The notes beneath the pieces were generated by a model. That model did no database searches and was not told where the DNA came from. It saw nothing but the letters and a program-made list of their open reading frames with translations. Shown one piece after another: positions 3,291 to 64,000 of a stretch of 64,000 nucleotides of DNA. Location of the stretch: assembly GCA_947623945.1 (NCBI GenBank), contig CANQHU010000001.1, positions 102,585 to 166,584 of the forward strand, given 5' to 3'. Each line of letters opens with the position of its first letter. Within the stretch, counting starts at the first letter, position 1. A program made the translations under genes and the position numbers. The DNA comes from an uncultured Clostridia bacterium (GTDB taxonomy: Bacteria > Bacillota > Clostridia > TANB77 > CAG-508).

Positions 3291-3368
3291 GACGGTCTTT
3301 ACAAGGGTGGTTTTCTTTGGTAAAATAAAGAAGAATGAGGCAAAAGGCTAAATGAAGGAGCGCGAGAT

Positions 3369-6990: not shown

Positions 6991-9900
6991 GTGAGAACAC
7001 ATAGAAAAGTGGCTGCTTTCTTGTTAGCGGCAGTTATGTTGGTGTCTTCGATGTCCGTACAGGCCGCCCCGCCCATTGTGGGGCAGCCTTCCGTGACAGC
7101 AAAAGAGACACCGAATGTGGTCGGAAAAACCACAACCTCTGAGGTAAAAGAAACCCCAAATGTGGTTGGTAAAACAACAGAGACAAAAGAGACGCCGAAT
7201 GTAGTCGGAAAGGCGACAACAGAGGCAAAAGAGACGCCGAATGTGGTCACAACAGAGGCATCGACTGCCGTGACGACGGAAACAACGACGGAAATAACAA
7301 CAGAAGCTGCAATAGAAGAGACAGAGGGACGAGAGCCGGAAGAGGAAGAAGTTACAAAGACATTATTAATGGAAGCGCCCGAAAGAGACAAAATTCCAAA
7401 AAACGCTAATATTATAGATAATATTGACGATATGTATTTAATATCATTTGACACACAAAAAGAAGCTATTAAAGCGTATGAAGAATATGGCAGTGGCAAA
7501 GGTAGTTATAAGGCTTCTATTAACACATCTTTTCGGGTGGCAACAGAAATATCGAAAACAAAGGATACACCGAATGACATCTTAGACGAAAATGTTTTTT
7601 CTAATATAGATACAGAACCAAAATCGTCGATTGTTCGTATAGGAAATACGGAAACAATTGCTTTAATTGATAGTGGCGTTCCTCAAAATCAATCGAATGT
7701 GGAAATGACTTCTGTCTTATCCAATGATGAGGGAGTGGATGGAAATGGACATGGAACGGTAATGTTAGAGACTATTCGCAACATCAATCCCAATGTAAAA
7801 GTATTATCTATCAAAGCCATAGATGATACCGGATTTGGAGACGCTGCTTCTGTTTATGCAGCAATTGAATATGCCATTGAGCGAAAAGTGTCTATTATCA
7901 ATTTATCTTTGAGTGGAGACGCAACAGAAGGAAATTTGGCTATCGAATCAGCAATTCAAGACGCTGTTAATGCGGGAATCCGTGTTATTGGAGCCGCAGG
8001 CAATAATGGAAATGATGCAAAGTATTATGTTCCCGGCAGCATCCGAAATGTAATTGTGTTGGGTGCGTGTGACAGTCTGGGAAATCGCATTTTCACATCT
8101 AATTATGGACCTTCTGTTGATTATTTTGGAGAGGCATCTTCTACATCTGAGGCAACGGCCAAGTTTTCTGCAACATTGGCATTGAATGATGGAGATATTG
8201 GAAAAACAGAATTAAAATTTTTTAAAAATGAAGAGAATTTTACCAACAATGCGGCTCCTATGGTAGAAGGTACTGATGGATTGGAACCCGCCGGAACGGT
8301 CATAGACTCTGCCACGGAAGCGTTTAAAGGTCCCGGAAATGTACGAAAGATGGACGGTGACAGTTCATCTAATGGTAAACCCATCTATGTATTTCATGAT
8401 TGGATGGCTAAAAGCTATTTTGATTTTGTAGATGCAAACAAGAGCCATCCTATCATTTTGATTCAGGGTGATTATAATGAAGAAGAGGATGCTGCACCCA
8501 TATATCGCTCGGACAAGAACGGAGATTGGAGTGATAAGGCTGATGAGTGTATGGACGGGTCGAAGACTGTTCAAAAACAGACATTAAAAGGCGGTCCAAG
8601 TGATGATTATAAATTACTGCGTTGTACAGGTAGCGTTGATAATGATGCGGTGCAAATCGTATATAATCAGGGTGATGCGCCAGAACATACCAGCGGTGTT
8701 GGGTTTTCATCAATGGGAACAGTATTTTATATCCAGCGTCCAGAGGTAAATAAAAATGATACAGATACATCAATTGATTTGAATGAATATTTTGTATTGC
8801 CTTGGGTTGCCGCAAATACAGCGACTGGAGAACGAACACATTTAATTATAAATATAACCCATTATGAATGGCACGCGGCCCATGTGACGGGCGATAAAGG
8901 GGAACAAAAGTCAGTCGAAACTGTAACAAACGCTGGAAAAGGAATTACAAAATTGCCTTTATTTGCAGTTACACTAAACGGTGAGTTTCATTTCTATGGA
9001 GGTGTCAATCGTGCTGAATATTGTGAAAGTCATAGTAATTACGGTGATGTAAATGCTTATGTAAAGATTACTTATAACCTGATAATCCCGGATGTACCAG
9101 AAGACTCGGCTGTTATGTATGCGTTTCGTGATATTGACCAAGAGATGGAAAGTCTTACCATAACTAATCCAATGTCTGATTTGAGTGTGGGTTCAAAAGC
9201 ATTCGACCATGGAAGTACAGTTGAAGGAAAATCCTATAAATCTTCAAACCATGGGTCTTTAGTCATTACGAAAGACGGAACCGGAGCGAATGCAACATTT
9301 AAAATAGACAATGGAAAAACGACAGGGGATGATGAATCTAGTTCTAATGATGATGAATCGGAAACAGGAACAGGTTTTTCCCTATTTGTAGATGCTCCAA
9401 AAACAAAGATTACATGGACTGGACATAATTGTGGAACACAAATGGGTGAGCAAACAAAGCCAATTGTTGAAAAGGTTCAAACACTGTATCAAAGACCAGA
9501 TGGAGCATATGGAAAGGATTATAACATAACTTATGCTAATGACCAGTATTATAAAAACGATAACGTAAATATGAGAGCAAAAGTAAAGGCATGGTATCTG
9601 TGTCCATGTTCAAAATTTAATGGTTATACAGAACGGTACCAACCTTGCACATATGATGACTATGATGGTGATGACTATGATGTCATAGATGACTATCTTA
9701 CTGCTGAGGACCTGCGTGATAATGACTTTCTTTTGAGTGCACAATCACCATATAAGATATATCGTACAGATTTAGACACAGGAAATCTAAACAGTACTTA
9801 TTATACGAATCAATACACCAATCCGACACTATCTCCTCCTGCTAAGACTTTACCTACAATTTCAGCACCATGGGATGTAAATGCGCATCCAACGAATCAA

Positions 9901-11580: not shown

Positions 11581-11620
11581 GAGGAGTGATGGATATGGGC
11601 GGAGATTAATCTCACATAAA

Positions 11621-11652
11621 GGGGCGCATCGTAAGATGTGTCCCTTTTTTTT
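11621..11652 (+). terminator. intrinsic terminator after the giant surface protein gene
   Basis: 10-bp stem GGGGCGCATC/GATGTGTCCC (with G-U pairs), GTAA loop, followed by T8. Confidence 0.75.
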
Positions 11653-11656
11653 CTTC

Positions 11657-11753
11657 TAAGAAAAATTCGTTTTTTTTTGCCCTTGCCCTACGGCAAGGGC
11701 AATTCTTCGGGGACTAAGTCCCCGAACCCCTTTATATCTACGAATTTTTCTTA
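11657..11753 (+). promoter_or_regulatory. structured intergenic element, copy A (outer 14-bp stem enclosing two hairpins plus a CCCC box)
   Basis: TAAGAAAAATTCGT (11657-70) pairs perfectly with ACGAATTTTTCTTA (11740-53). Inner hairpin 1 is TTGCCCTTGCC-CTAC-GGCAAGGGCAA. Inner hairpin 2 is TTCGGGGAC-TAA-GTCCCCGAA followed by CCCCTTTA. The same architecture occurs at 24693 and 49571. Confidence 0.7.
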
Positions 11754-11831
11754 TCATTTTTTTTATTTTTTTATTCAGGTAAAAGTAATGAATTTTCAGG
11801 GAGTTTATTTTTTTTGGGGAAAGGAGACGCT

Positions 11832-33163: not shown

Positions 33164-33326
33164 AAAGAAAGGGACGGTTCGTATCGAACTGAAAGAAATA
33201 GAAGTGCAAAGCCTGTTACATGGAACTATCCCGGCAGAAATGAAACAGAAATTAGCAAAAACAGAAAATCCCAAGCCTGTCGCTTTGGTCGAAGTGGCTG
33301 GGATTTTTTCTCAATTTCATAGTTGA
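33141..33326 (+). CDS. hypothetical small protein
   Basis: GTG 8 nt after GGAAAGGAGA; an alternative ATG lies at 33123. Confidence 0.35.
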   Translation: MKVISNNRKKGTVRIELKEIEVQSLLHGTIPAEMKQKLAKTENPKPVALVEVAGIFSQFHS

Positions 33327-33363
33327 CAATTTCTATCACCTATGATAGAATTTAACTATCATA
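33323..33363 (+). promoter_or_regulatory. sigma-70-type promoter with overlapping inverted repeat
   Basis: TTGACA (33323-28), 17-nt spacer, extended -10 TGaTAGAAT (33343-51). The perfect inverted repeat TATGATAG-N7-CTATCATA (33341-63) overlaps the -10. Confidence 0.7.
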
Positions 33364-46683: not shown

Positions 46684-46712
46684 TTGCATTTTTTACCAGA
46701 CTTCGATATAAT
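46684..46712 (+). promoter_or_regulatory. sigma-70-type promoter
   Basis: TTGCAT, 17-nt spacer, consensus TATAAT. Lies 26 nt upstream of the XRE-family gene. Confidence 0.65.
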
Positions 46713-49108: not shown

Positions 49109-49575
49109 AAAAGGAGAAAGTATTTGGCGTTATCTGTATTCTTCTTGCCTTGGGACTTGCCCTATTTGGGCGTCCGTCCCAACGCATTTATGTCAACGCT
49201 TTGACCGAGGGTGTCGACGCCTTACGAAAACAGCAAGCATCCATGGACGAAGTGTTATCCGATGAAATTCAGATACGGCCAGACAAAACAGACAAGATTC
49301 AAGAGGGGAAGACCTATGAAGTGACAGTTTCTTATCAAATTGTCAGCCAAAAGGGAACCGATTTATTTACAACACGAAAAAAGACTGGTGCACCTGCCTA
49401 TATTGGGTGTTCTCCCTTGGTGACACATCAGACCTTTCAAGCAGAATCCTCACACATTGTAGTGGATTTGGCGCTGGCTTTGACGCCGGAGGAAATTGTG
49501 GATGAAGACGGCAAGCCGTTTTCACCGCAGACGCAAAAATTGCGTCCCATTGTTACGGTAGAACCCATTTCGTAA
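49105..49575 (+). CDS. membrane-anchored/secreted small protein
   Basis: ATGA overlap with the upstream gene. N-terminus KKEKVFGVICILLALGLALFG is a hydrophobic anchor. Confidence 0.55.
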   Translation: MKKEKVFGVICILLALGLALFGRPSQRIYVNALTEGVDALRKQQASMDEVLSDEIQIRPDKTDKIQEGKTYEVTVSYQIVSQKGTDLFTTRKKTGAPAYIGCSPLVTHQTFQAESSHIVVDLALALTPEEIVDEDGKPFSPQTQKLRPIVTVEPIS

Positions 49576-49668
49576 TTGTTCTTCGCCAAAGGATACCCTT
49601 TGGCGAATTCTTTGGGGAGACCCCAAACCCCTTTTCAATTACGAAATTTTTTCTTTCTTACGAAAGAA
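49571..49668 (+). promoter_or_regulatory. structured intergenic element, copy C
   Basis: Outer stem CGTAATTG (49571-78) / CAATTACG (49636-43). Hairpin 1 is TTCGCCAAAGG-ATAC-CCTTTGGCGAA. Hairpin 2 is TTTGGGG-AGA-CCCCAAA followed by CCCCTTTT. An extra hairpin TTCTTTC-TTAC-GAAAGAA follows. Confidence 0.7.
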
Positions 49669-49687: not shown

Positions 49688-49963
49688 ATGTATGTAAACC
49701 CGATACCATATATTGACCAAGCAAAGAAATTTGAATTTCGATTTGCCATTTCCTTCGACGAGCTGTTGGATGTGGAAGAGGCGAAAGACATTGCAGCAGA
49801 ATATTTGTTGGGACTGTCAAAAGAACAGTTAAAGAAAGGCTTAGCCTGCAAAACTTTTCCGGTGTATCCGGAGAGCAAGTTCAGTGACGATGATTTGGAG
49901 ATTTGGGGTAATAAAAAAGAATATGACAAAAAGAAACAGGATGAAGAGGATGAGGAGGACTAG
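49688..49963 (+). CDS. hypothetical small acidic protein
   Basis: ATG at 49688 follows AAGGAGAG. 91 aa, with tail ..KKKQDEEDEED. Confidence 0.55.
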   Translation: MYVNPIPYIDQAKKFEFRFAISFDELLDVEEAKDIAAEYLLGLSKEQLKKGLACKTFPVYPESKFSDDDLEIWGNKKEYDKKKQDEEDEED

Positions 49964-60330: not shown

Positions 60331-61263
60331 TTATAAGCTCAAGGCTTCTGCCTGCTGTTTAGCTGGAGATAACGACGCTTTTAAGCGATTGGCTGCCTCT
60401 TGGAATTTGGCATTGTCCCGTTCCTGTTTTGCCGGGTCAATACTTCGGCGAACCTCGTATACGACAGTCTTATTGACACGCCAGTGTACAAAATCCTTGA
60501 CCGCCGCTTTGCGTTCGGGCGTTACATCCATGAACCGCAAATCGCCATAGCGAACGCCGGGTGGCAGACATTGTTTCTGCATATTTTCCCGCACGGTGGA
60601 GGATAGGTTCTTTAACACGGCTTCCACACCGTAGCCGGAGCCAATGGACATTCCATTGTCAATTTCATCTAATTTCGTTTCATACTGATTTCGATATTCC
60701 TTCTGAATCAGTTCGTACATATTGGGCGTCAATGGCATATAGCCAACCGGGTCCCGTAAAGGGGCTACGCCCTTGCTTTCGCAAAGTTCGTTAAATAACG
60801 CAATGCCTTCGTCTTTGGATACTTTGGACGGAACCTCTTTGCCAAGCCAATCCTTGACAAAATCGGTATCTACTATTGTTTCCCATTTCGTTGCGGTCAC
60901 ATGAAGCTGCAAATGGCCCTTGATGTCGTTACGAACGGATTTTTCAAAGTTCCGCTTCGCTTCCTGCCGCTCGGTCAAAAACGATTGATACTGTTCCTGC
61001 ATGGTTTCATCAAAGCAACAGGTGGTAGCATAGCGTTCGCCCATTTCTTCCACTAAGGGCAGGGAAAGTCCCGGCGCTTCGGTGACTTCCCCGTTTGGTT
61101 CATATTGAATCGTGCCACTGGAAAGGTCAAAGATACAATGAGCTGTCCCATCCGGGTCTATCAGCCGGCCATTCGTCCGGTTGGCTTCCCAGTGCCAATT
61201 CCCGGAAGAGAGAATGGGCACGGTTTCTGTTTTGTTGGTCACATCGGATAAAAACCAAGCCAT
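60331..61263 (-). CDS. hypothetical protein
   Basis: 310 aa. Lies downstream of, and 13 nt from, the RNA polymerase-like gene. Confidence 0.6.
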   Translation of the reverse strand: MAWFLSDVTNKTETVPILSSGNWHWEANRTNGRLIDPDGTAHCIFDLSSGTIQYEPNGEVTEAPGLSLPLVEEMGERYATTCCFDETMQEQYQSFLTERQEAKRNFEKSVRNDIKGHLQLHVTATKWETIVDTDFVKDWLGKEVPSKVSKDEGIALFNELCESKGVAPLRDPVGYMPLTPNMYELIQKEYRNQYETKLDEIDNGMSIGSGYGVEAVLKNLSSTVRENMQKQCLPPGVRYGDLRFMDVTPERKAAVKDFVHWRVNKTVVYEVRRSIDPAKQERDNAKFQEAANRLKASLSPAKQQAEALSL

Positions 61264-61276
61264 GATATCGACCTCC

Positions 61277-64000
61277 TTACAGTATGGGCTCGTCGTTGAC
61301 GGCTAATTTTTGCAGTTCCGCATCAAATACTTTGGCAGAGGCATAGGCTAATTTCATCGTGGTGGTTTCGGTATTATTGATAACGCCGTTTCCAAAGTCT
61401 CCGTTTTTATCTAACTGCGCCGCATACACTTTATCCACAAAGGTATCGACAACGCCTTCCGGAATTAAGCCTTCCGTAATCTCTTTTAAGATAACACGGG
61501 AATCGTGCGCGTTGTATTTCCCGTTTAATACCTGTTTCATGGTCTTAATCCCGCTGTCAATGATAGGCAGCTTTTCGGCGCTCTTTTTCATCTGCAAGCA
61601 GGATTGTGTCATAGAGTAGGACAAATCCATCGCGCTCCGCAGAATGTCATTGTGATTATCCTGTAAGTGGGAAATCAGTTTGTTTGTGGTCGCGCCTGCC
61701 AGACCGGTCCATTCGGACTTGGCAATTAAGGCTTTCGCCAACGCCTGATTTTCCTCTTTGGTATAGCCGCTATCCAGATAACGCTCCATATCGACTCGTT
61801 TTCCCTTGATACCGTCATCTGCCAGCTTGCAAAGGGAATTCTTTGCAGACTGTTCATCGGTAAAGGAAATCGGATAAGCGCCATAGCTCTTGGGAGAATC
61901 CAAAAGCTGTCTGGTTTTTGCTTCGACTAAGGCAACCAGCTCTTCACTGGACTTTCCATCGGCAAAGGTAATGTCGCTGATATCCATGCCATTTGCTTTG
62001 GCAATGCCGACAAAATCGGCAGAATCGGTATTTAATTTGACTTCGCCGTAATAATTGACACGCTCCGTCACATTGGACTTTTCAAAGAGTTCCTGCTTTT
62101 TCTCTTCCGAGAGATTGATATTTTTATAGGCATTTTCCCCTTCGGTATCGCCATCGTAGTCTCCGTCCTGCATATTAATCATTAACGGATTCGTATGCAA
62201 TACATTCGGAGCCGCGCCGCCGACATTGTTCATAGAAAGCACATTTCCACACTGAATCGCCGGGTCACGGTGAACGACCACTCTGGTGTCTTCCACATTG
62301 CTTCGGACATCATTTAATCCAATGCTCGGGTCCGGTACGATAACGGTGGTTCGGGCGCCAGTGGTAAAGGTCATGGTATCAATGTTCTTTAACAGGTTGT
62401 TTTTATCTGTTAAGTTTTTGTAGTCAATGCCGCTGAACTTATCATAGGCTGCTTGTATTTTATCCTCACTGCCACAGGCTAATTCCCGGAATATATCAAT
62501 GTATCGGTAAGGAATCGTGCCATCGGCATTGACACGAATCGGCAGGACATTATGCCCTTGGGAATCTTGTATCGGCCCGTCAAAGAACCGGCTGTTAAGC
62601 TGCATATCCCCAAGGTCGATGTTGATTTTGTTGTCCCGCATCTGGTTCATTAAGGATAACCGAATAGCCGATGGATTCATATATTCAAAGGTATCGACAG
62701 AAACGGTCACCGGAGCGTCCACAAATAGATTGACATTCCCCTCAGAGAGCAGCTTCTTGTCATCGTTAAAGCTGACACCTAGCCGTTCAAAGGTAGCCGC
62801 TACCTCATCAATGTGACGGTTTCGTACTTCCTCGGAGATAAAGCCTTCTTTGTAAAGGTCGCCGACCTTTGCTGTTAAAGCATAGCGGAACAGGGTAGAA
62901 TACCGTCTGCCATCTCCCTCAATGCCATAATCCTTACTCTTATGCTCGGCCGTTTGTGCCAGACGCATATAAGTAAGCTGGGTGCCGCCGTTTTCTACCG
63001 TGGTACCGTCGGGCAGGGTCACATCAAAAGTGTCGCCGTCCAAGCCCTCATAAACAATGCCCATATTCAAACGGGAGGCAATGGAAGACGGAGAGGCAAT
63101 CACATCAATATCCGGATTGTCTTTCATAAACTGAATGGCATTCTCTAAGTGCCGCTCTTTGACTTGCTCTTCTGTTAAATCGCCTAAGATAACGGAAACC
63201 GTACCCTTGTTGCCATGGAAGTCCTCCAGCTTATCGCCAACCTTAATGGTTCCATTCATGTTGTTGGTAAGTACCAGTGCATCTTCCATGTTCCACATAC
63301 CAAATTCACCGATAAATACATTCGGCTTCATCACATCTAAAGAGGTGAGCATCGCATTGAAGCTCATCTGGTTTCGGTTAAAGTTATCTCTATCGGCGTG
63401 GCAGGCGTCAATGATTTCACCTATCTCGGAAAACCTTGACTGTCCCGGCGTAATCGTGCCATCGGGATTGATAACGGCGTCTTTGGTTAGATAGAAAATC
63501 ATACCTAAATTTCGGCCATTGCTGGTGCCATACGGGTCAATCACTCCTGCCGCATCTTCGTCTAACATCGTCAAGGCAACGGCCCCCAGTTCATCAGCAG
63601 TGCCGCCAAATTCCGCTAACAGGGAATTGGACTCTTGATAGCGTTTGGATAAGACAACCTTATGCTTTAAGGTGTCTAAGATTTCTTGTCCGTATGGGTG
63701 ATTATCAAAATCCGGTAAATTTCTTGTCACATCCAAAATCGTCTTGAATTTGACATTGCCCTTTTTCGTCAAATCATACTGTAATCTTACGCCGTCAATC
63801 GCCCGTTCTACCGGGTCGATGACCCGTAAACGGTCAATCCGGGAACCGGAGCCCTCGGCAAAATAACCAATGTGGTAGGGAAGATAGGCTGTTTTCTGAT
63901 TATGGAAGACACCCTTTTCATCGACTTCGGGTAAGTTTGTAATCTTACGAGTATACCCATCTTCCTGTAGCTCTAACACGCCTTTTTCCCGGTCATACCG
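61277..64000 (-). CDS. single-polypeptide two-double-psi-beta-barrel RNA polymerase (YonO-like), N-terminus probably beyond the window
   Basis: Beta-subunit-like box KVGDKLEDFHGNKGTVSVI...DIDVIASPSSIASRLNMG. Beta-prime-like boxes VVVHRDPAIQCGNVL and the catalytic MQDGDYDGD (cf. NADFDGD). The frame stays open upstream of the GTG at 63979 as far as position 64000. Confidence 0.7.
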   Translation of the reverse strand, partial: RYDREKGVLELQEDGYTRKITNLPEVDEKGVFHNQKTAYLPYHIGYFAEGSGSRIDRLRVIDPVERAIDGVRLQYDLTKKGNVKFKTILDVTRNLPDFDNHPYGQEILDTLKHKVVLSKRYQESNSLLAEFGGTADELGAVALTMLDEDAAGVIDPYGTSNGRNLGMIFYLTKDAVINPDGTITPGQSRFSEIGEIIDACHADRDNFNRNQMSFNAMLTSLDVMKPNVFIGEFGMWNMEDALVLTNNMNGTIKVGDKLEDFHGNKGTVSVILGDLTEEQVKERHLENAIQFMKDNPDIDVIASPSSIASRLNMGIVYEGLDGDTFDVTLPDGTTVENGGTQLTYMRLAQTAEHKSKDYGIEGDGRRYSTLFRYALTAKVGDLYKEGFISEEVRNRHIDEVAATFERLGVSFNDDKKLLSEGNVNLFVDAPVTVSVDTFEYMNPSAIRLSLMNQMRDNKINIDLGDMQLNSRFFDGPIQDSQGHNVLPIRVNADGTIPYRYIDIFRELACGSEDKIQAAYDKFSGIDYKNLTDKNNLLKNIDTMTFTTGARTTVIVPDPSIGLNDVRSNVEDTRVVVHRDPAIQCGNVLSMNNVGGAAPNVLHTNPLMINMQDGDYDGDTEGENAYKNINLSEEKKQELFEKSNVTERVNYYGEVKLNTDSADFVGIAKANGMDISDITFADGKSSEELVALVEAKTRQLLDSPKSYGAYPISFTDEQSAKNSLCKLADDGIKGKRVDMERYLDSGYTKEENQALAKALIAKSEWTGLAGATTNKLISHLQDNHNDILRSAMDLSYSMTQSCLQMKKSAEKLPIIDSGIKTMKQVLNGKYNAHDSRVILKEITEGLIPEGVVDTFVDKVYAAQLDKNGDFGNGVINNTETTTMKLAYASAKVFDAELQKLAVNDEPIL

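Follow-up and report, generated by a model that had tools for sequence, protein, structure and literature searches.

The RNase III sites of phage T7 and the sites of phage SP82 each consist of one irregular hairpin, ~20 bp or longer, in which internal loops occur and G-U pairs are frequent. The virion RNA polymerase of phage N4, a T7-like enzyme of ~3500 amino acids (aa) that is packaged in the virion, uses a promoter hairpin of 5-7 bp with a 3-nt loop (PMC4496689). The PeSL cassettes of T4-type phages hold a host sigma70 early promoter, and their conserved primary sequence drives recombination (PMC2839356, PMC4122927). For the YonO polymerase of SPbeta, the promoter is left undefined in the paper that maps its start site (PMC5467207). 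The subject of the present analysis is a structured intergenic element in a 64,000-nucleotide (nt) stretch of contig CANQHU010000001.1 (positions 102,585 to 166,584; hereafter the window), which is built of two adjacent hairpins (HP1 and HP2), a single-stranded ACCCC and a G at a fixed distance beyond it. The element is a new, strongly covarying signal family that no described RNA family matches. In everything examined, this family is confined to uncultured phages of ~180-235 kb that encode a single-chain RNA polymerase. It is read here, tentatively, as a transcription signal specific to this clade. Its most likely role is that of an N4-like DNA-hairpin promoter for the phage's sigma-less two-barrel polymerase, with a predicted start at the G that stands 12 nt past ACCCC (G+12).

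Exactly three copies lie in the window (A, B and C in Table 1), all on the + strand, and no fourth was found in the 64 kb by a relaxed regular expression, a descriptor scan or a covariance-model search with default filters. An earlier reading of the letters (the initial annotation) had described such a three-copy intergenic element, which is borne out, with the letters of copy A matching that description exactly. The chance expectation of the core TTCTT-N-GGGG..CCCCRAACCCC in the window is 0.00. Folding energies of copies A, B and C, calculated with RNA parameters, are -48.6, -51.7 and -42.6 kcal/mol (z-scores of -10.5, -8.6 and -8.9), and equally good folds arise in 0/200 shuffles. The same layout had been ascribed to all copies; this is true of copy C, which repeats the three-way arrangement of copy A with other letters in its outer stem and HP1, but not of copy B, which has extra hairpins and a weak outer stem at best, and which shares HP2 and the tail with the other two. 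Outer stems occur only in copies A and C and are not a family feature. TTCTT and the T8-A-T box are present in the copies for which they were described, but they are features of a lineage rather than of the family, the box because it is found only at copies A, B and D, the last of which lies beyond the window.

Across the family, HP1 is a stem of 7-12 bp, free in sequence, with NTAC or TAAC as its loop. A mostly pyrimidine linker of 2-9 nt joins it to HP2, which has 6-9 bp and a G-rich 5' arm and usually reads xxGGGG..CCCCx'x'. The tail consensus is A(A)CCCN, 7 nt and then T-W-A-Y-G-R, with an 11-nt G-free stretch leading to G+12. Stem sequences are unrelated between copies. Because MAFFT gave no structural register across stem lengths, HP1 was counted on contiguous loop-proximal 18-mers, with rows extracted as hairpins. 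Among 20 distinct HP1 stems, 139/140 pairs are Watson-Crick (99.3%) and none is G-U; double changes occur at all 7 pair positions, covariation is 1.35 compared with 0.25 in shuffled stems, and pairing drops to 30-43% when slid. The 29 distinct HP2 rows are 95.6% paired, compared with 85.3% when shuffled and at most 74% when slid, and double changes occur in 4/6 pairs, the basal and apical pairs covarying around an invariant G-C core. Since several sites are orthologues, these counts do not represent independent events. Compensatory covariation had already been proposed from copies A and C, and it proves to be that of a genuine structured family, present in both hairpins and extending to relatives.

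The fixed-distance G+12 after ACCCC is the most informative feature of the element and was overlooked by the initial annotation. At 11 sites chosen without reference to the tail, the first G of the ungapped tail falls at +12 in ten and at +13 in one, against a background G frequency of 8%. The G+12 column carries 2.95 bits of information, and the best six-column block, TWAYGR, was matched by 0/5000 shuffles. An xTAC tetranucleotide is present both in the HP1 loop and at +8..+11. The duplicated C-run had been taken as a possible switch, in which the second CCCC would pair alternatively with GGGG. Such a switch is not supported because the two drift independently: the second run becomes ACCCT, ACCCG, ACCCA or AACCA with no compensation in GGGG, and in L169 and L171 HP2 loses GGGG and the tail does not follow. 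A C+.G-C triplex was also set aside, as it shows no covariation, and the basal pairs of HP2 cannot be a linker in either arrangement because they covary. Mimicry of a tRNA or CCA minihelix was rejected as well (no T-loop and no ARAGORN match).

Beyond the window, copy D lies in the same genome, downstream of a ParM-like gene and ~3 kb past the end of the window, and reads GCACGGTC-CTAC-GACCGTGC CCTTTCTT TGGGGAC-TTGC-GTCCCCA AACCCC AAATCATTTACAG. The orthologous D site of L164, whose polymerase is 71% identical, reads TTCGCCCATGCC-CTAC-GGCATGGGCGAA, then TTGGGGAT-AAA-ATCCCCAA and ACCCC. That of L167 (polymerase 59% identical) reads TTTTTTGCCGC-ATAC-GCGGCAAAAAA, then ACGGGGA-TAT-TCCCCGT and ACCCC; here TTCTT is gone and AC..GT replaces TT..AA as the basal pairs of HP2. 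At the site of L162 that is orthologous to copy A, the contig starts inside HP2 and includes GAACCCC. An exact-pattern scan of IMG/VR that specified only TTCTT, HP2 and AAACCCC identified a second phage group (L002, L010, L011, L017, L018, L020, L025 and L026). Directly 5' of every match in this group stands a hairpin with a CTAC, TTAC or ATAC loop and with compensatory variants such as CCGT-CTAC-ACGG versus CCAT-ATAC-ATGG. L010 has four sites in 5 kb, three of which flank two small genes. No protein similarity to the window is visible at the loci of this group, and a search of L010 against phage records (near mode) gave no match.

A covariance model built on HP2 and the tail only, with HP1 excluded, recovered all known sites with E-values of 1e-15 to 1e-5, together with six new divergent sites (L173 no. 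2, L167 no. 2, L169, L171, L038 and L172-9816). The unmodelled HP1 with its NTAC/TAAC loop is found directly 5' of 6/6 new sites, perfect in five and with only 4 bp at L038. The covariance-model check proposed in the initial annotation has in this way revealed both additional copies and covariation in related genomes. Rfam gave 0 gathering-level matches over the window, and permissive E-values produced only sub-threshold noise around copies A and C. The matches of a contig pattern scan, mostly G+C-rich REP-like repeats and Clostridia-phage 5' leaders in opposite orientation, were judged unrelated products of pattern bias; among them only L112 resembles the family, and no protein link was seen. 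In a set of G+C-rich phage contigs (L003, L004, L016, L021, L022, L031 and L150), tandem hairpins of the form GGGGTYYGGGG-loop-CCCC..AAGAAAGGAG make up the 5' leader of a conserved gene. They have the same core in opposite orientation relative to the gene, and this leader appears to be a separate, undescribed motif. Three tandem units of the element, 70-74 nt apart and each followed by an A9-10 run, are located at L172 4331-4140 (-), and at L173 3464-4794 (-) five tandem paralogous 83-aa open reading frames lie directly 3' of an element copy.

The candidate partner of the element is P0122, a product of 1158 aa whose gene runs off the window end. It carries the beta-like motifs GxxxPxGTSNGxNxG and KVGDKxxxxHGNKG and the beta'-like motif DGDYDGD, and is assigned as a single-chain two-barrel RNA polymerase because both motif blocks stand in one chain. 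The earlier label 'YonO-like' holds for this architecture (two double-psi barrels in one chain) but not for homology, which is undetectable between P0122 and SPbeta YonO by hhalign (probability 0.1, E 0.58). A tblastn search of P0122 against 50,697 phage records gave no match, and no T7-like polymerase was seen in the ~81 kb of this genome inspected. The element tracks the polymerase. It is carried by relatives over a range of 45-72% polymerase identity, among them relatives at 45, 48, 51, 59 and 71%, of which the contig at 51%, IMGVR_UViG_3300008363_000002 (193 kb), was first found by its DNA pattern and only later by a polymerase profile search, and those at 48% and 45% are two further contigs. 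The initial annotation had offered a promoter or recognition element for this polymerase as one candidate role; the co-occurrence across the clade agrees with such a pairing, while the promoter role itself is proposed on the arguments given below.

The polymerase operon has the order 221 aa, 45 aa, polymerase, 310 aa, and the 310-aa gene (60331-61263) downstream of the polymerase accompanies it in all relatives with 28-43% identity. Its expression is driven by a divergent control region, shared with an RHH/ParM-like operon, that contains sigmaA-like hexamers and two operators of the form TCTATCA-N4-TGATAGA (L161:9035-9052 and 9079-9096, ~0.7-0.9 kb past the window end). The same operator-like repeat overlaps the best host-type promoter of the window (Table 1), a promoter that shows another promoter class in the same genome. 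One repressor probably controls polymerase expression, judging from these repeats, and the shared operator and ParM hint at a phage-plasmid lifestyle.

Every copy is co-oriented with its flanking genes, and copies A to D each lie between a stop codon and the next gene. The distance from G+12 to the start codon is 36-90 nt in this genome and 16-35 nt in the second phage group (16-95 nt over sites). In 7/10 sites the distance from the upstream stop codon to the start of HP1 is -3 to 11 nt; elsewhere a spacer or a canonical terminator lies between the two. A canonical terminator stands directly 5' of the element at copy A (11618-11647), at the D site of L167 and at L173 no. 2, which is the classic terminator-then-promoter order. 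SigmaA-like promoters are found some genes (2-6) upstream of the copies, at 3298-3326 before A, at 21816-21844 before B and at 46684-46712 (TTGCAT-17-TATAAT) before C, with an operator-controlled promoter (L161 ~9100) upstream of D. In no case is a sigma70-like site flagged between a copy and the gene that follows it, and such sites are flagged elsewhere at 3298, 21816 and 33323. Two readings of the element itself as a host-type promoter were rejected: as a sigmaA promoter with TTGGGG as -35 and TNAAT as -10, its spacing would vary from 16 to 20 nt, and as an extended -10 around TG(+11/+12), it would have poor hexamers and, at several sites, C as Y11.

In the hairpin-promoter reading, the host RNA polymerase would read sigmaA-type promoters, one of which, guarded by operators, would drive the phage polymerase operon. 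The phage polymerase, possibly with its 310-aa and 221-aa operon partners, would recognise two extruded DNA hairpins, HP1 via the NTAC/TAAC loop and HP2 via the GGGG/CCCC core, along with the adjacent single-stranded ACCCC. A sigma-less minimal polymerase plausibly needs pre-melted DNA, and the 11-nt G-free A/T-rich spacer would act as both ruler and melting region. Transcription would start at the conserved G, 12 nt past ACCCC, and turn on the downstream blocks of DNA-metabolism and anti-defence genes. In this lineage, HP1 and the T-rich linker may also damp read-through from the upstream unit. The promoter role is inferred from the terminator-then-element order, the lack of host-type promoters, the G-free A/T-rich ruler to a conserved G, the hairpin geometry and the scarcity of G-U pairs. 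A DNA hairpin or cruciform, as in N4 promoters, would fit both the near absence of G-U pairs and hairpin tops that vary while the base geometry stays fixed.

Table 1. Positions of the element copies, their parts and associated features in the window
Feature	Position	Strand	Remarks
Intrinsic-terminator-like hairpin (13 pairs) with T-run	11618..11655	+	Canonical; closes the upstream unit (1529-aa gene) immediately 5' of copy A
Copy A, whole element	11657..11753	+	Covariance model 48.9 bits, E 1.6e-11
Copy A, outer stem TAAGAAAAATTCGT / ACGAATTTTTCTTA	11657-11670 / 11740-11753	+	Perfect 14 bp; encloses both hairpins
Copy A, HP1 TTGCCCTTGCC-CTAC-GGCAAGGGCAA	11677-11702	+	Loop CTAC 11688-11691
Copy A, TTCTT	11703-11707	+	
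Copy A, HP2 TTCGGGGAC-TAA-GTCCCCGAA	11706-11726	+	Then CCCC 11727-11730 and TTTA
Copy A, G-less spacer	11731-11741	+	Conserved CTACGA 11738-11743; G+12 at 11742
T8-A-T7 box 3' of copy A	11758..11773	+	Common to copies B and D only
Copy B, whole element	24693..24797	+	
Copy B, extra upstream hairpin TTTGCCGG-ACTTACGC-CCGGCAAA	24693..24716	+	Imperfect; TTAC within loop; begins 7 nt past stop codon 24684-24686
Copy B, core	24720..24797	+	Covariance model 51.1 bits
Copy B, 17-bp hairpin	24720-24757	+	TATC loop
Copy B, TTCTT	24760-24764	+	
Copy B, HP2	24763-24780	+	Then ACCCC 24781-24785 and spacer; G+12 at 24797
Copy B, T8-A-T6 box	24799-24813	+	ATG of metallo-beta-lactamase/Apyc1-like gene at 24833
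Best host-type (sigmaA-like) promoter of the window, TTGACA-17-TAGAAT with TG	33323..33351	+	Overlapped by operator-like inverted repeat TCTATCACCTATGATAGA (33332-33349)
Copy C, whole element	49567..49647	+	Covariance model 50.8 bits
Copy C, outer stem (12 bp)	49567-49578 / 49636-49647	+	Overlaps upstream stop codon 49573-49575
Copy C, HP1 (11 bp)	49582-49607	+	Loop ATAC
Copy C, TTCTT	49608-49612	+	
Copy C, HP2	49611-49627	+	Then CCCC 49628-49631
Copy C, TTACGA	49639-49644	+	G+12 at 49643; downstream ATG at 49688
RNA polymerase gene (P0122), 3' part	61277..64000	-	900/1158 codons; runs off the window end

A number of points weigh against a DNA promoter. The start at G+12 is purely inferred. 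In L010-type phages no copy lies within 10 kb of the polymerase gene, and the genome parts inspected exclude the late (structural) region of every genome. To our knowledge, the sole precedent for a hairpin promoter uses an unrelated T7-like polymerase. SigmaA-like promoters lie 3' of the element at L172-9816 and at the D site of L167, and another precedes the three tandem units of L172; the element is not the sole promoter at these places because sigmaA-like promoters adjoin it. The tighter hold of the element on the upstream stop codon than on the downstream start codon is terminator-like or 3'-end-like. Covariation of hairpins on the transcribed strand is equally expected of an RNA element, and the single G-T wobble, which site c has in its L011/L025 variant, is tolerated on the + strand only. 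Each of the last two points also suits RNA punctuation, in which the two hairpins and the single-stranded ACCCC-N7-TWAYGR tail would be recognised in the polycistronic mRNA. A host or phage endoribonuclease would cut near G+12, at a fixed distance 3' of HP2, so that the hairpins cap and protect the 3' end of the upstream message and the downstream message begins at a set position, in the manner of the RNase III sites of T7 and the early-mRNA sites of SP82. The orientation of the element matches the genes at every site, it follows stop codons directly, gene by gene at the four sites in 5 kb of L010, its fixed-distance conserved block is compatible with a cleavage site, and the three L172 units occupy a leader, 3' of a promoter-like site. 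RNA punctuation is nevertheless rated unlikely. Only 1-2 G-U pairs occur among ~290 stem pairs, unusually few for an RNA-selected helix when compared with typical RNA families; little read-through RNA is expected at copy A, the D site of L167 and L173 no. 2, which follow canonical terminators; classical RNase III substrates need longer stems than the 7-12 bp present here; and no Rfam family matches.

A terminator or insulator, which would stop the host polymerase (through HP1 and the T-rich linker) or the phage polymerase (through a hairpin and ACCCC) between units, is improbable. HP1 of copy C (tail TTCTTTGG) and the 17-bp hairpin of copy B (tail TTTTCTTG) are flagged as terminator-like, a T-run follows the outer stem in copies A and C, and the element abuts stop codons and stands upstream of sigmaA-like promoters in L172 (9816) and at the D site of L167, an order also found in T4 PeSL cassettes (PMC4122927). 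When an intrinsic terminator is defined as a G+C-rich hairpin with a U-tract within 0-2 nt, copies B and C qualify, but HP1 of copy A does not, and neither do L167, L172, L169, L171 and L038, where HP1 has no T-rich tract after it. ACCCC always follows HP2 and stands between it and any T-run, the outer stems that precede T-runs are those of two copies only, and the conserved G+12 would be left unexplained. At copy B, a pure terminator would be harmful because essential replication genes (helicase, DNA polymerase) follow there without another promoter, where relatives have a promoter region. Far less probable again is a hairpin site in single-stranded DNA, at which an HUH/Y1 enzyme would make strand-specific nicks, the lagging strand would be primed or gene cassettes would be shuffled by recombination. 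The stems are perfect Watson-Crick palindromes, the xTAC of the HP1 loop returns at +8..+11, an IS200-like Y1_Tnp is encoded in the genome, copy B forms the right edge of a four-gene insertion that relatives lack, and the gene after copy A is an ORFan. Against these stand a Y1_Tnp gene with no copies on its flanks and no homologue either at the relatives' loci or in IMG/VR, stems that are not shared between copies, unlike those of REP or IS ends, and gene-by-gene spacing with strict co-orientation to transcription, which point to gene expression. The slimmest chance is given to a put- or nut-like cis antitermination RNA, a transcript that would modify its polymerase to ignore downstream terminators. 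It would account for two stem-loops with conserved loop and junction residues, for copies few genes downstream of sigmaA-like promoters (3298, 21816, 46684 and L161 ~9100) and for the L172 tandem units just past a promoter-like site. However, the put-like antiterminator put forward in the initial annotation is unlikely for copy A, which lies 3' of a canonical terminator, and two other sites also come after, not before, a strong terminator. Four copies in 5 kb (L010) and triple tandems are unneeded for a cis antiterminator, Rfam shows no similarity, and the lack of G-U pairs is a further point against this reading.

The window belongs to a metagenomic phage contig of ~181.8 kb (ENA ERZ27249377 NODE_8) whose ends it spans, consistent with a circular or permuted genome. 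Its genes are on the + strand up to 60.3 kb, and their products include NrdD, SNF2-, UvrD- and RecD2-type helicases, a DNA-polymerase-like protein, an NAD ligase and a metallo-beta-lactamase (MBL)/Apyc1-like hydrolase. No similar cultured phage or plasmid was found when 20 kb of the window was compared by megablast with phage and plasmid records. A tblastn search of the DNA polymerase against phage records and close-relative scans of IMG/VR with the genes downstream of copies A and B also gave no match. The first gene after copy A is an ORFan, whose homologue search gave only itself among the matches listed, and it is followed by an SNF2-type helicase block that is kept in relatives. The conjugation cassette that had been placed after copy A is not supported, as none of these downstream genes resembles a conjugation gene. 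At 21410-21435, where the + strand helicase block meets two small - strand genes, a strong hairpin (AGCCGGCCAGAGAAATCTGGTCGGCT) with an A-run on one side and a T-run on the other resembles a bidirectional terminator.

Directly 3' of copy B, at 24833-25633, lies an MBL-fold gene of a large phage family. It is likely an anti-defence nuclease for cyclic nucleotides because family members carry precomputed matches to PF23023 (Anti-Pycsar Apyc1). Four function-unassigned genes at 22132-24686 are absent from all syntenic relatives examined; as an insertion, they separate copy B from the divergent promoter region. The relatives have no element there, and their MBL gene comes directly after the divergent promoter region, whereas the window phage has the four extra genes and copy B interposed before the helicase/DNA-polymerase block, and copy B must therefore permit that block's expression. 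An IS200-like Y1_Tnp (HUH) gene is embedded in a + strand operon at L176:2371-3117, ~4 kb left of the window start. REP/RAYT or IS200/IS605 ends were rejected as an identity for the element, as the stems differ in every copy and no copy lies within 2 kb of this gene.

It is possible, though doubtful, that the element represents the first promoter class for a sigma-independent, single-chain two-barrel phage polymerase, composed of extruded hairpins and an ACCCC-N7 ruler with a start at G+12. If so, an unrelated polymerase fold would have convergently re-invented the N4 hairpin-promoter principle, as a master switch of gut jumbo phages or phage-plasmids. How sigma-less two-barrel polymerases (YonO, crAss-type and jumbo-phage) find their start sites becomes testable with this family, which offers a 60-nt candidate signal, a predicted start nucleotide, the partner P0122 with conserved operon neighbours and natural compensatory variants. 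If the element is not a promoter, it is still a new, well-supported structured regulatory motif. With it, transcription units could be annotated across uncultured phages of 180-235 kb, an abundant clade, and boundaries of gene-cassette swapping located.

Compared with known systems, the element resembles SPbeta YonO's setting (PMC5467207) in having a single-chain two-barrel phage polymerase, and differs in that the two polymerases have no detectable homology to each other. The interval of the mapped YonO start contains TCATTTATGA, which resembles the copy D tail TCATTTAYGA. On the - strand of SPbeta L168 (AF020713), the 240-nt primer-bracketed interval holds TCATTTATGAGGG (5447-5435), and a second copy, TTCATTTATGAAGG, lies 160 nt upstream (~5603-5590); each is 17 nt past a hairpin and is like the copy D and L162 tails. 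From the letters, this repeat may be a YonO promoter core or a chance likeness of 6-10 nt in A/T-rich DNA. The covariance model has no match in the SPbeta YonO region. The put RNAs of HK022 are likewise two adjacent stem-loops, phage-encoded and strand-specific, but they are located directly after early promoters and before terminators, two per genome, whereas here copies are many, some after terminators and some in tandem. The T7 RNase III and SP82 sites are also conserved intergenic hairpins that punctuate phage polycistronic transcripts, and differ from the two short perfect hairpins and conserved single-stranded tail found here.

The PeSLs of T4-type phages (PMC2839356, PMC4122927) share more of the genomic setting, as small composite intergenic stem-loop cassettes that are repeated in a large phage genome and flank variable or ORFan genes at indel boundaries. 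In contrast to PeSLs, no sigma70-type promoter lies in the cassette and the stems are wholly different between copies. The early promoters of the N4 virion polymerase (PMC4496689) are similar in their few copies per genome, their sigma-less polymerase and a short hairpin with both conserved and free-but-paired stem positions, which correspond here to the HP2 core and the covarying HP1. They also have a purine-free or A-rich ruler from hairpin to start, and a conserved template C (RNA G) at +1. Their start lies at a set distance past a hairpin whose extrusion requires supercoiling; the counterpart seen here is the fixed-distance G+12. N4 has one hairpin rather than two, its sequence motifs differ, extrusion and start site are demonstrated there and predicted here, and in place of a T7-like virion polymerase the present phages have an 1158-aa two-barrel enzyme with a host-type promoter. 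The element is a member of neither class, and works most like the N4 hairpin promoters while behaving in the genome like the T4 PeSL cassettes.

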